From: Eledone cirrhosa
Lineage: Eukaryota
Length of the DNA stretch: 64,000 bases
Assembly (NCBI GenBank): GCA_964016885.1
Contig: OZ024748.1
Location: forward strand, 48,670,001 to 48,734,000
Reading direction: 5' to 3'
Made by a program: the position numbers and the translations under genes. Below, in pieces: positions 1,121 to 63,185 of the stretch; positions within the stretch are counted from its first letter, which is position 1, and each line of letters starts with the position of its first letter. A model generated the notes under the pieces. The model was given only the letters and a program-made list of their open reading frames with translations. It ran no database searches and was not told the DNA's origin.

Positions 1121-1204
1121 TGTTTCTACCCCATGGGATTTCATTCGCTTTTGGAAATATCTGATCAAGGATAAATTCACGAGTTTCGAAATCATCAGGA
1201 AACA
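1121..1204 (-). ncRNA. Type I hammerhead ribozyme, long stem II
   Basis: Minus strand reads UGUUUC-CUGAUGA-(U)UUCG...CGAA(U)-GAAA-UCCCAUGGG-GUA-GAAACA. Perfect 6-bp stem I, palindromic stem III (CCCAUGGG), GUA triplet. Confidence 0.85.
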
Positions 1205-1613
1205 AACTCACTTGAACGAAGATTTTTCTTAAATGATCCCCACCAGAAACGAATTCAAAATGGCTAAGAACTGTGGCGTGGCAGTGGTCAAGTCAGAAAG
1301 AATGTGGATGGTGCCTTACGGCGAGTGGGCTGGTTTCTAGAAAGCGGAGCCTAATACTGCCTAAATTGCATCTTAACCATATGGGAGATTATCAAATATA
1401 AAGATTTACATATACATAAACTAGACAAAGTCTTAGATATATATATATATATGAGTTTTTGGCAACCATTCACGATGTGGCTCAATGACGAATTAATTAA
1501 TTAATCAACAATCAGAGCAATATACAATAAAGTATGTCCATAGAATTATATATATATATATATATATGTGTGTATATATATATGTATATATATATCTATG
1601 TATATATATATAT

Positions 1614-2092
1614 GACGAAGAAGGGCTCCTGCGTACGAAAGGCCGGTTATATGATGCCTGTGTGAGGAGCGCGATGCTGCATGGTAGTGAGACTTGGGCA
1701 GCAACTGCAGAGGATATGCGACGGCTGGAGAGAAATGAGGCAAGCATGCTCCATTGGATGTGTGATGTCAATGTGCGTGAAGGACCCAGCATGGATGTGT
1801 TGAGAGAGAAACTGTGTCTGAGGGGGATAGAATGTAGTGTGCGAGAGAGGAGACTGCGGTAGTATGGACATGTGATGTGCATGGAGGGTGACTGATGGGT
1901 GAAGAAGTGCCAGGAAATGCCAGTTGAAGGAAGACGTGGTAGAGGTAGACCACGAAAAACATGGGCGGAGGTGGTGAGGAAAGACCTCGGATCGCTGAAG
2001 CTCACGGTGGAGAGATGCTGTGCTGAATAAGACCCGCCCCACCCTTGCAAGCAGGGAAAAGCAGACGTAAAATGATGATGATGATGATGATG
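1614..2092 (+). mobile_element. 5'-truncated RTE-group LINE 3' end with (ATG)n tail
   Basis: [54 protein letters not shown]; internal stops. Confidence 0.85.
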
Positions 2093-4818
2093 TGTGTATA
2101 TATATATATATATATGTGTGTATATATATATATATATATATATATATGTGTGTGTGTGTATATATATGTATATATATGTGTGTATATATGTATATATATA
2201 TATATATATGTGTGTGTGTGTATATATATATATATGTATATATATGTGTGTGTATATATATATGTATATATATATGTGTGTGTGTGTGTATATATATCTA
2301 TGTATATATATATATATATGTGTGTGTATATATGTATATATATCTATGATTATATATATATATATCTATGTATATATATATGTGTGCGTATATATATATA
2401 TATGTATATATATGTATATATATATGTGTGTGTGTGTATATATATGTATATATATCTATGATTATATATATATATATATATATATATATATATCTATGAT
2501 TATATAGATATATATATATATATATATATGTGTGTTGTGTGTATATATATATGTATATATATCTATGATTATATATATATATATATATATATATATATAT
2601 ATATATATATATATGTGTGTTGTGTGTATATATATATGTATATATATCTATGATTATATATATATATATATATATATATGTGTGTGTGTGTGTGTATATA
2701 TATATATATGTATATATATCTTTGATTATATATATATATATATATATATATATGTTTGTGTTGTGTATATATATATATATATATATATATATATATATAT
2801 GTATATATACACACACAGTAACTTTGTATTGGAAGTATTCACCACTATATAGCAGCTAGAACAATTCTTATGATATGGACATATGATAAGACTCAGTTGA
2901 GGATAAAATGTTGCAGAAAACAAAACAAAAAGCTTGCTGTTGATAAGAAGGCCATTGATAGCTTAAAAAAGAGGTTATGTTGATCAGGCTTTTACAAAGA
3001 TAACATTGATTTTTAACTAAAATATAGAACCAGATGTATTGAAGTTTGGTGCTTTTTTTTTTTTACTGTTTTTTTTTTTTTCCATTCCATAAAGACAATA
3101 TTAACAATGTTCTAGGCACACACATGTAATTAGGCATTTCGTAAGATTTTCTGAAGTAAATTTACTATGTGATTAAATATTTATAATGTTAAACTATGAT
3201 ATGAGTTATATTACAGCAGCTCTCATAACCATTCCCTTGACGTACCAAATATATATTTGCATAGTTCACTTGGTGATTTGCATGGTAAACACACCAAGTA
3301 CACTCTGTAAAGTGGTTGGTGACAGGAAGGGCATCTAACTGTAGAAAGTTTGCCAAACAAAGTGTTGGGAGGATTCTTCAGATGTTTCAAAGACATGACA
3401 ACCTCCCTAGAGTTGGTGATCTACAGGATACAAACCCCCAGTATATACAGTAAAGTAGTTGGTGACAGGAAGGGCATCCAACTGTAGAAAGTTTGCCAAA
3501 CAAAGTGTTGGGAGGATCCTTCAGATGTCAAAAACATCACAACTCCTCTAGTGTTAATGCCACAATATGAACTTGGTAGAACATGAAATGTGAGATATGA
3601 AACCTATTCTGCCTGGGATGTCAGTAACCCTGCTTCAGTACTGACTTGGTCTGTGAAAACCTGTCCACCCCTTGCAAGGAAAGTGGATGTTAAATGATAT
3701 GATGATGGTTGTTGGTGGTTTGGCAGTATCGGTAGAGCATCAGACACCATACTTTGCAGCATAGAGTTACGGCCCTTTATGATCTGAGTTCAAATTCCAC
3801 CGAGGTTAGCTATACCTTTCATCCTTACAGAGTTGATAACATAAAGTACCAGTAATACACTGTGGTTGACTTAATCTACTTTCTCCTTCCAATTGCTGGC
3901 CTTGTGCCCAAAGTAGAAACAACTGTTTCTTTGTTTATTTTTTTATAGCAGAATCATGTTGGGAAAGTTTGTGGTGGAAAGTAGGTGAAAGTAATGTAAA
4001 CAAAAGATTTACTGAAGCTAAACACATCTGTAATTATATGGGGTTTATTTATTATTAGTTAAATAATGTGTAAAGAATTACTGTTTGAGGTTATAGTGTC
4101 AGCTGACCCTACTCTCTCCCACATCACACAGATACACATATACATACACAGACAGATATACACATACACACATATACAGAGAGACAGGTACACACACACA
4201 CAACCCCCCCCCCCCTCTCTCCTGTCATAGGAGGCTTAAAACCTCCCCCAAAATTACTAGCCTTGTGCCTATAGTAGAAATCATTATTATTATTACCAAT
4301 AATTTACGATCTGAATTCAAATCCTGTCGAGGTTAACTTTGCCTTTCATCCTCACGGGGTCGATAAAATAAAGTACCGGTAATGTACTGGGTAATTGCTG
4401 GCCTTGTGCCAAAAGTAGAAGCAATTATTATTACCAATATTATGTGTGTTTGTGTGTATAATTTTTCAAAGGGCATTACTTGTCTCCATGGTTTGTTATG
4501 TCTCAATGTACACTGGAATGAATGGTTTCGACTTTAATGAAACAAAACTATTATGAATTCCAGAGGTTAACTGAGGAGATGGGACTGTCCATCTTTCCGT
4601 TGTTTTTTTTCTCCATTGTCTTTGTCCTGTGCGCTCCCTGTTTTGAACACACACACACAGATACAGACACACACACACAGACACACACACAGACACACAC
4701 ACCACACACCACACACCACACACACCACACACACACACACACACACATAATATATAAAAGCAAAAAAAAAACTATAAGGTTTAACTTATTTTTGTTTTAG
4801 CGCCCAAGATGTGTTAGC

Positions 4819-4861
4819 CCCTCTGATGATGGTTAAAGAACCAGAAACGGTGTTGTCAGGG
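4819..4861 (+). ncRNA. Minimal type I hammerhead ribozyme
   Basis: CCCU-CUGAUGA-UGGUU-AAAG-AACCA-GAAAC-GGUGUU-GUC-AGGG: intact core and all three stems. Confidence 0.85.
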
Positions 4862-5004
4862 TAATCTCCCTTATTTGCTAAGATAGTGGTGAATAAATCA
4901 CTGCTTTTAAAATTCATAGCAAGGCTACCAAAATGTATATTTATATGAACATTTTGTATATGATTCAATATACAACCCCAGTCACGATTTATATATATAT
5001 ATAT

Positions 5005-5582
5005 ATATAAAAGGGTATGGATAATCCAACAGGCACTAGATACCTACAGAAATATGCATGGTATTTATAATAGTTGAGGTTCGATGGTACTAATTTGAGA
5101 TACCAGAACTTTAAAAATGAGCTTAGCAAGCAATTATCAAACAATCTTTTAACCACAACTATTATAAACACCATGCATATTTCTGTAGGTACCTAGTGCC
5201 TGTTGGAATATCCATACCCTTTTATAATTTTTCTCCTTATGTAGAGAACAAAACGTTGTATCGCGCTGCTATTTTTAGTGGCATGATCAGCAAGTTTATA
5301 ATAACCCGCTTTTACTTGTGGCCTAATTTTGCGTGCGTGTCACTTCAACAGCTTGACTGCATGCGTCGGGCAGTAAGCGAAATATTGACTTACTATGAGG
5401 TTTGCACCTGTATGGTATGGAAATAGCTGCCTGAAGATCTAATTCTTTCCATTGGAAATTCTCTGGATTTCCAATCTTTTGATTAGTGAAACCGTCGGTA
5501 ACAGCAATAGAACAGGTGAATATTTAAATCGTTTTTTAATTTATTTAAAAGATTGTTTGATAATTGCTTGCTCCGCTCATTT
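5005..5582 (+). mobile_element. Hammerhead-bearing Penelope-like pLTR remnant with two inverted duplications
   Basis: 5005-5081 is the inverse of 5151-5226; 5115-5152 is the inverse of 5545-5582 (2 mismatches). Bounded by (TA)n on both sides. Confidence 0.65.
5426..5505 (+). ncRNA. Type I hammerhead ribozyme, long stem II
   Basis: GCUGC-CUGAAGA-(U)CUAAU..AUUGGAAAU/AUUUCCAAU..AUUAG(U)-GAAAC-CGUCG-GUA-ACAGC. One mismatch at the base of stem I. Confidence 0.78.
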
Positions 5583-61961: not shown

Positions 61962-62269
61962 TATATATATGTGTGTTTATATATATGTATATATATAGAC
62001 ATATATATATCATCATCATCATCGTTTAACGTCCATCTTCCACGCTTATATATATATATATATATATATATATATAAGAATTAAAATACTAGAGTGTGTT
62101 GGAGTTAAACACCCTCTTCATATTATAGAAATGGCTCAATGTAATTAAACAGAGATATAGTTCAATGTAATTAATAGCTCAATGTAATTATAGCTCAATG
62201 TAATTAAACAGAGCCAAAGAATTATAAAAAATAAACCAAAGAAGCCTTCAATACATCAAAAGTCATTAT

Positions 62270-62311
62270 TTGCCAACAATGTTTCGTCCTATTAAATACT
62301 CATCAGGGCAA
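62270..62311 (-). ncRNA. Mirror copy of the minimal hammerhead
   Basis: UUGCC-CUGAUGA-GUAUU-UAAU-AGGAC-GAAAC-AUU-GUU-GGCAA. 5-bp stem I, weakened stem II. Confidence 0.75.
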
Positions 62312-62462
62312 GTAAAGCTACAAGAAGCACTATCGGCCAATACAAGCCAAAAACTCAGAAGAATATAGAGTATACATCTATTAAAGCTTAGGAAAGATGT
62401 ATACTCCATATTCTTCTGAGTTTTTGGCTTGTATTGGCCGATAGTGGTTCTTGTAGCTTTAC

Positions 62463-62504
62463 TTGCCCTGATGAGTCCTTAATAGGACGAAACATTGTTG
62501 GCTA
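62463..62504 (+). ncRNA. Minimal type I hammerhead ribozyme
   Basis: UUGCC-CUGAUGA-GUCCU-UAAU-AGGAC-GAAAC-AUU-GUU-GGCUA, then AATAAA. Confidence 0.85.
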
Positions 62505-62990
62505 ATAAAGACTTTTGATGTATTGAAAGCTTCTTTGGTTTATTTTTTATAATATATATATATATATATATATATATATATACATATATATATATACATA
62601 TATATATATATATATATATATACATATATATATATATATATATATATATATACATATATATATATATACATATATATATATATATATATATATATATATA
62701 TATATATATGTATGTATATATATATATATATATATATACATATATATATATATATATATATATATATATATACATATATATATATATATACATATATATA
62801 TATATATATATATATATATACATATATATATATATATATATATATATATATATATATATATATATACATATATATATATATATATATATATACATATATA
62901 TATATATATATATATATACATATATATATATATATATATATATATACATACATATATATATATATATATATATATATATATGTATATATA

Positions 62991-63185
62991 TAACGAAGGA
63001 ATTGTGGTAAGGAGCCAGATGGACCATAACGCACCAGAGTACTCAATACTTTGGGTAGTAGAGTGGGTAATAGGAAAGGGTATGACCCCGATGGCAGAGC
63101 TCAAGCCGTTTCGACGGCTATTTCTGGACAGAAATAGCCGTCGAAACGGCTTGAGCTCTGCGGTCGGGGTCATACCTTTTCCTAT
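62991..63185 (-). mobile_element. Second, truncated copy of the 47106 family with a terminal fold-back
   Basis: Same terminus TAACGAAGGA..GTGGTAAGGA..GGACCATAACGCACC. Palindrome 63070-63185 carries only the 3' half of the ribozyme. Confidence 0.8.

Follow-up and report, generated by a model that had tools for sequence, protein, structure and literature searches.

What does it mean that a single stretch of 64,000 nucleotides in the 3.0-Gb genome of Eledone cirrhosa (contig OZ024748.1 of assembly GCA_964016885.1, positions 48,670,001 to 48,734,000; hereafter the window), rich in (TA)n microsatellites, contains nine type I hammerhead ribozyme motifs? The original prediction, made from the letters of the window, interpreted them as non-coding ribozyme mini-elements that are mobilised by Penelope machinery and targeted to microsatellites. 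Our analysis indicates that five of the motifs are very probably hammerheads in truncated 3′-ends of three Penelope-like families with motifs of the Hydra clade, and that the other four reside in retrozymes devoid of long terminal repeats (non-LTR retrozymes), which the same enzymes are likely to have copied in trans. Hence, Penelope machinery and (TA)n targeting withstood the analysis, whereas a non-coding nature applies to only four of the nine motifs, which lack an open reading frame (ORF), the other five being ends of protein-coding Hydra-type elements.

The window contains nine hammerhead motifs

All nine motifs were located where they had been reported, namely at 1121 (minus strand), 4819 (plus), 5426 (plus), 8868 (plus), 16174 (minus), 47200 (minus), 47469 (plus), 62270 (minus), and 62463 (plus), and they represent seven families, termed A to G. 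For their detection we employed a type I descriptor that allows a C3-G8 or U3-A8 core pair and scores the stems. At a score of at least 26 it recovered six of the nine motifs, as compared to a mean of 0.07 matches (maximum 1) in 150 local dinucleotide shuffles of the window; depending on the threshold, the shuffle mean ranged from 0.03 to 0.18. When stem III was allowed to extend to 22 nucleotides, eight of the nine motifs passed and no other match was obtained in the window, with a mean of 0.15 (maximum 2) in 100 shuffles. A strict descriptor yielded three matches only, because it forbids mismatches and a palindromic stem III. The motifs are therefore real and non-random, with counts far above those of shuffled sequence. 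The core CUGANGA...GAAA...UH, with three helices and open at helix I, is present in eight of them, and stem III comprises at least three base pairs in all nine.

The motif of family A (1121-1204, minus strand, core at 1198) has a U.U at the base of a long stem II and a palindromic stem III, and cleavage is predicted at a GUA site after 1127. For the motifs of families B (4819-4861, plus) and E (16174-16217, minus), the latter with a U3-A8 core, GUC sites are predicted after 4857 and 16178, respectively. The motif of family C (5426-5505, plus; predicted GUA site after 5500) has a stem II of 50 nucleotides, and that of family D (8866-8961, plus; predicted GUA site after 8954) a stem II of 63 nucleotides with a mismatched base. 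Family F contributes one motif on the minus strand (47200-47296), with a U3-A8 core, a 55-nucleotide stem II, a 19-nucleotide stem III and one mismatch in stem I, and a second on the plus strand (47469-47563; predicted GUC site after 47558). The motifs of family G comprise a minus-strand copy with two mismatches in stem II (62270-62312) and a plus-strand copy (62463-62504; predicted GUU site after 62499), for which 21 of 23 fetched motifs are identical.

The only motif that fails the descriptor is the one at 5426, where C replaces U at position 1.1 (5430), so that stem I begins with a C.A mismatch (pair 1.1-2.1). In the commonest genomic variant of family C and in all covering contigs of other organisms this position is a U and the pair is U-A, so that the failure is particular to the window copy and not to the family. 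The folds had been described as well formed, which is generous given the mismatches at 8868, 47200, and 62270. Free folding recovered the hammerhead shape only in part. At the Rfam gathering thresholds no match to any model, and thus none to a hammerhead model, was obtained in the window, and among the 150 matches listed of 523 in the E-value list no hammerhead family was present. These matches correspond mostly to microsatellite-like microRNA models, and spurious ones arise from a perfect palindrome at 47321-47442, which is centred on (TA)n and built by two inverted ends of family F.

By inspection, decayed hammerheads are likewise present, as had been predicted, at about 5830 (plus), 6010 (plus), 17775 (minus), 44740 (plus), and 62994-63185. 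The first two lie in two further (TA)n-flanked repeats (5609-6144) with decayed or junction-broken hammerheads. An AATAAA signal had been noted behind several motifs; an A(A/T)TAAA hexamer occurs within 150 nucleotides 3′ of the site in three of nine, and AATAAA is not a feature that they share.

Families D, F, and G are 3′-ends of protein-coding Penelope-like elements

Searches of the genome with each family yielded 1596 (D), 3051 (F), and 1463 (G) first-look candidates, numbers that are not copy numbers; 40 candidates were scored per search. The full-length top matches are 99% identical for family G, mostly 97-99% for F, and 93-97% for D. The islands are therefore multi-copy, and for these three families they are linked to ORFs encoding reverse transcriptase (RT) or a GIY-YIG endonuclease (EN), in line with the predicted connection to Penelope.

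For family G, one of 20 fetched loci (L008) joins an inverted hammerhead end to RT. With the RT-bearing DNA of this locus as query, we obtained copies in which the hammerhead follows an RT and GIY-YIG ORF at a distance of about 1.6 kb (L050, L052, L055; 1642 nucleotides past the stop codon in L050), and open frames of 862 (L057) and 903 (L052) amino acids. Locus L217 of family F displays the order pseudo-LTR (pLTR), ORF, pLTR, with 682 open codons and two hammerheads 3634 bp apart. In family D, DNA coding for a CxCx5C linker and GIY-YIG is located about 1.8 kb upstream in four of 13 loci (L287, L288, L291, L297). Thus, F and G encode RT followed by a C-terminal GIY-YIG in a single ORF, whereas for D the linker and EN were retrieved and no RT was fetched. 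The architecture of EN-bearing Penelope-like elements is apparent in the pLTR or partial tandem arrangement (L217), the inverted 5′-copies, and the two 3′-ends (optional tail).

Families F and G carry the motifs RWR (not RWK), DKT, CxCx5C, CxxC, and CxH; the last three are present in D. As described in PMC8557442, the Hydra clade is characterised by RWK-like, DKT, CxCx5C, CxxC, and CxH motifs as well as a GIY-YIG at the C-terminus, and the (TA)n target and a canonical hammerhead, further traits of this clade, are likewise found here. A Neptune or Nematis affiliation of F and G was rejected on motifs, as CxCx5C and DKT are present and not a CX2-5CxxC linker with DKG. We therefore assign D, F, and G tentatively to the Hydra clade, based on motifs and not on a tree, with the Hydra reference proteins compared by eye. 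Pfam yielded no match in three ORFs, and a protein search returned 1205 matches, among which the 120 listed show 38-54% identity and no informative name.

In the window, family D (8767-9007, plus strand) comprises a Hydra-type 3′-end at 8841-9007 and, in inverted orientation, a long-ended piece at 8767-8820. Family F occupies 47109-47606 with two adjacent inverted-pair insertions (47109-47369 and 47399-47606), and family G spans 62078-62552 with a short 3′-end on the plus strand (about 62395-62552) and an inverted long-ended copy on the minus strand (62078-62398). A remnant of an F subfamily at 62994-63185, 87-89% identical to F, is an inverted pair cut within stem II that lacks the 5′-core. 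Since RT or EN coding sequence is joined to D, F, and G elsewhere in the genome, the five motifs at 8868, 47200/47469, and 62270/62463 are pLTR hammerheads of a known type that 5′-truncation left behind in partly inverted ends of three autonomous families.

Two further observations concern these elements. In L007, at about 1800-2000, the inverted end of a G element meets a relative of family D that has a hammerhead of its own, the two autonomous families forming a heterologous inverted pair. Moreover, another young family of Penelope-like elements, 98-99% identical and with 1645 first-look candidates, is present in L271-L284 and L228:4824-6134; its linker and endonuclease are of a different kind, and it may be Nematis-like.

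Families A, B, C, and E are ORF-less monomers

The remaining four motifs belong to families without comparable coding capacity, the longest ATG-initiated ORF in their monomers encoding 31-47 amino acids. First-look candidates numbered 3654 (A), 346 (B), 2168 (C), and 1798 (E), and the full-length top matches are 99% identical for E, 93-97% for A and C, and 76-86% for B. Family A is present as one monomer of about 700 nucleotides with a 22-nucleotide terminal repeat between (TA)n arrays (826-1546, minus); in the genome its marker spacing is 673-758 nucleotides in 17 of 41 copies, none of which displayed a tandem of two complete hammerheads. Family B (4752-4989, plus) is a partial monomer of an old tandem family that is related to E and repeats at about 280-310 nucleotides in three loci. 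The monomer of family C (about 465 nucleotides, 5151-5581) is preceded by an inverted 5′-copy (5013-5152), the whole spanning 5013-5581 on the plus strand, and its head-to-tail unit measures 465 nucleotides. The young family E (16040-16385, minus) comprises a monomer of 316-318 nucleotides, with the minus-strand copy at 16040-16294 and an inverted piece at 16294-16385; head-to-tail spacing of 315-320 nucleotides is observed in ten of 18 loci (two of them overlapping), with up to four units.

The families had been regarded as about seven in number and unrelated in sequence, which does not hold for E (16174) and B (4819), with 66% identity over 128 nucleotides (E-value 5e-8). Likewise, the islands had been put at 150-600 bp, a range that the island at 833-1546 exceeds with 720 bp.

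Taken together, A, B, C, and E consist of ORF-less head-to-tail monomers that each contain a single type I hammerhead and have no LTR, and the motifs at 1121, 4819, 5426, and 16174 would by definition, save for expression, reside in non-LTR retrozymes. Alternatively, each of the nine motifs could lie in nothing more than the truncated pLTR of an autonomous Penelope-like element; the tandem units of families A, B, C, and E would then be pLTR multimers whose ORF-bearing copies fall outside the top matches. The scoring of just 40 out of 346-3654 candidates per search leaves room for such copies, Xenopus retrozymes match pLTRs, and family D itself seemed ORF-less until it was extended. However, across 81 loci of families A, C, and E the 5′-side never continues into a contiguous ORF on the same strand; this side is occupied by the family's own 3′-sequence, by an inverted copy, or by unrelated DNA. 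Moreover, the same head-to-tail units recur in contigs of other organisms (316 nucleotides for E and 467 for C), and a relative of E forms an array of 11 units in the sampled DNA. We thus regard this explanation as unlikely.

This array comprises at least 11 near-identical 310-nucleotide hammerhead monomers (L244:281-3381, i.e., G000:C3:190000001-190010000, and L233:9335-9955), adjoins an assembly gap, and has a C3-G8 core and stems different from those of E, to which the unit is 66% identical over its whole length (E-value 2e-27). In L209:144-1088 sequence of the 310-nucleotide sister family borders an E insertion and has the same orientation, so that two retrozymes may have formed a chimera here. 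In family B (L120, L125, L126) an octamer-like sequence, ATGCAAAT, is located about 85 nucleotides upstream of the core and is not conserved in E; it resembles the small nuclear RNA-type promoters of newt satellite 2.

Compensatory changes were assessed for the B/E group. Among its relatives, five of six tested pairs, including the core pair 3-8, change on both sides, corresponding to a score of 0.69 that none of 500 shuffles reached, with slid controls at 0.28 or below. In addition, family E in contigs of other organisms displays an A-U to U-A double change in stem III and changes in the loops, while the core is unchanged. These changes argue that the hammerhead fold is under selection in active lineages, as far as few rows and low-depth contigs indicate.

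Autonomous and ORF-less families share an insertion footprint

An inverted copy of the same family adjoins the 5′-end in five of 24 loci of A, ten of 23 of C, and 11 of 17 of E; these counts exclude the window's own loci and eight overlapping duplicates (L152, L194, L195, L197, L201, L203, L205, L213). The 3′-ends abut (TA)n at fixed distances from the core, namely at 370-385 nucleotides in 21 of 24 cases for A, at 148-150 in 15 and 253-255 in five of 26 for C, at 134 in 15 and 213-215 in eight of 30 for D, and at 181-182 in 21 of 25 for F. A short and a long 3′-end are found in C, D, F, and G, and by sequence likewise in E. In the window, the two arms of the D, E, F, and G pairs end differently, one short and one long, which is what the tail at one end only, as published for Penelope-like elements, predicts. 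Enrichment beside (TA)n, which had been proposed as well, is evident in DNA sampled across the genome, where (TA)5 occurs within 200 nucleotides downstream at 17 of 23 independent sites, as compared to a background of 28% (p = 8e-6).

Autonomous and ORF-less families therefore insert alike, and the footprint of the retrozymes, i.e., the (TA)n flank, the inverted 5′-copy, and the two fixed 3′-ends, supports mobilisation in trans. One could argue instead that the ORF-less units spread by another route, via another retroelement clade or satellite-type amplification, and that the (TA)n flanks stem from their own AT-rich ends. In fact, runs of AT lie within A and E, at the 3′-end or close to it, and arrays of 11 or more units exist. 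Nevertheless, the copies are short and dispersed over many contigs, and, as in D, F, and G, they come with inverted 5′-copies and with 3′-ends at two fixed positions. Moreover, family C ends at fixed points that are followed by (TA)n in the copies but by unit sequence in dimers. We regard this alternative as unlikely.

At three of the 81 retrozyme loci (L150, L196, L204) the 5′-end is joined head-to-head to inverted pieces of Hydra ORFs (p = 0.011, given an ORF cover of 0.57%). We did not accept these joints as proof of template switching, as the ORF pieces carry stop codons or insertions of short interspersed nuclear elements (SINEs) and an AT run contains one of the joints; they are suggestive only.

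Hammerheads are abundant throughout the genome

An unusual density at this one locus had been suggested. To put it in numbers, 40 evenly chosen 10-kb stretches (0.013% of the genome) were searched with a relaxed descriptor, counting arrays once and retaining probable false positives. We obtained 35 motifs at 23 independent sites, as compared to 1.36 in 25 shuffles, from which we roughly estimate 160,000 hammerhead sites in the genome (95% Poisson interval 99,000-248,000). Counts published with other descriptors are about 6,000 for a coral, 5,000 for a mussel, and 126,000 for the axolotl. With six passing insertions as compared to 3.7 expected (p = 0.17-0.20) the window is not enriched, and the density is, within sampling error, a property of the whole genome. 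That all nine motifs represent a previously unknown class of mini-elements, non-coding, ribozyme-bearing, and peculiar to the window, as the lack of a Penelope ORF match within its 64 kb and of an Rfam match might suggest, is hardly credible, as D, F, and G run into ORFs elsewhere, which refutes the idea for five of nine motifs, and the density equals the genome average.

Other repeats of the window comprise a direct duplication of about 1230 bp at 43114-46333 (44122-45126 and 45351-46333, same repeat order), which includes the decayed hammerhead near 44740; a SINE with a tRNA-like head and an (ATG)n end, often located between (TA)n arrays (24081-24432, 30802-31176, 46340-46650, 8225-8350); a second short repeat, very abundant and about 137 nucleotides long, that is present in most fetched loci (3715-3920, 4300-4425, 63480-63660); and two copies of a (TA)n-flanked element of 570-590 nucleotides with no hammerhead detected (14763-15356, 16800-17370).

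Discussion

Both types of elements have been published, and we do not propose a new system. In particular, the supplement of PMC8557442 reports for Hydra-1_Obim of Octopus bimaculoides a canonical hammerhead and a preference for (TA)n. Like D, F, and G, the Hydra elements described in PMC8557442 combine the C-terminal GIY-YIG and the motif set with (TA)n insertion, a hammerhead near the 3′-end, an inverted 5′-truncated copy, and an optional tail, and by eye the motifs in the first 400 residues given for Hydra-1_Obim follow one another as in F and G. In contrast to the published elements, the 3′-UTRs measure 1.2-1.8 kb and the unit 3.6 kb, as compared to generally less than 3 kb, the tails are 80-95 nucleotides long, and D and F have a stem II of 55-63 nucleotides, F in addition a U3-A8 core and a 19-nucleotide stem III; the hammerhead given there for Hydra-1_oBim differs from each of the nine. 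PMC8557442 also describes MRC1 and other Chlamys elements, which are, like the retrozymes here, non-autonomous and arranged head-to-tail, and which are mobilised by Penelope, as the retrozymes here likely are.

The minimal hammerheads of metazoan Penelope-like elements (PMC4209133) resemble the window set in being type I, with many families per genome and mostly single truncated copies, and that account, from 2014, already contains U3-A8 cores and pairs on opposite strands, separated by 100-700 bp, in other animals. Unlike these minimal hammerheads, all nine motifs have a stem III of at least three pairs and are therefore more similar to the canonical motifs that have been tabulated for Hydra. 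As to the retrozymes, PMC7229834 and bioRxiv 10.64898/2026.07.22.740005 describe animal non-LTR retrozymes that are likewise ORF-less, AT-rich, and head-to-tail, with one type I hammerhead each and coexisting Penelope-like elements. At about 310 nucleotides B and E are of typical size, whereas A (700) and C (465) exceed the 170-400 nucleotides of the former account and fall within the 51-972 nucleotides of the latter. The available text of both mentions no cephalopods, and neither (TA)n targets nor inverted 5′-copies for retrozymes.

Following PMC11167929 and PMC7229834, we envisage that the GIY-YIG endonuclease would nick both strands of (TA)n, and that RT would prime on the nicks and begin at either of two fixed positions within the element, 3′ of the hammerhead, which would produce the short or the long 3′-end. 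Early termination would leave the hammerhead-bearing end only, and second-strand priming would add the inverted 5′-copy. In vitro, a Penelope protein cleaves both strands of AT-rich DNA and extends them, with initiation at two internal sites between which the tail lies (PMC11167929). Multimeric transcripts would be processed to unit length by the hammerheads, and the retrozyme units would circularise, so that read-round copying of the circles could generate head-to-tail inserts of 1.1 to 4 units.

Several points weigh against the assignment of the nine motifs to Hydra-type ends and retrozymes copied in trans. The sole Penelope element tested in vitro, as reported in PMC11167929, inserted without need of its hammerhead, which required protein for cleavage; in D, F, and G the hammerhead may accordingly play a minor role. 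The tails of C, D, F, and G measure 80-105 nucleotides as compared to the published 30-40, which E fits with about 36. The clade assignment is motif-based, Pfam is silent, and RT is missing from the loci fetched for D. Other elements that insert into (TA)n occur in cephalopods, e.g., Naiad, and the presumably Nematis-like family shares the genome. Furthermore, the covariation test comprises seven related rows from which the structure itself was derived, and the cross-organism changes stem from single low-depth contigs in two studies and three contigs in a third. Finally, a comparison of the monomers with five autonomous copies of four families gave at best 68% identity over 72 AT-rich nucleotides (E-value 6e-4), which is no convincing homology.

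These points notwithstanding, we consider it somewhat more probable than the contrary that several retrozyme families of the cephalopod type genuinely are non-autonomous partners of Penelope elements of the Hydra clade and bear the full enzymatic footprint: a (TA)n target, an inverted second-strand copy, two mapped initiation sites, and occasional head-to-head joints with Hydra ORF pieces. To date, the mover of animal retrozymes has been argued from co-occurrence and pLTR similarity. In the literature searched we found nothing on cephalopod retrozymes or on (TA)n or inverted footprints of retrozymes, while Repbase, subscription papers, and preprint supplements may hold these families. A Penelope-type footprint on retrozymes, for which this literature offered no precedent, is therefore worth following.

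The long-stem-II and U3-A8 variants that Rfam missed would extend hammerhead models. The value of the locus lies in its use as a test bed: the young family E, with 99% identity, together with open-frame Hydra-type copies and mapped 3′-ends would permit a direct in vitro test of retrozyme mobilisation. If the proposed partnership is true, it would provide direct genomic evidence on the mechanism by which retrozymes are mobilised, in a genome with more than 100,000 hammerhead sites.

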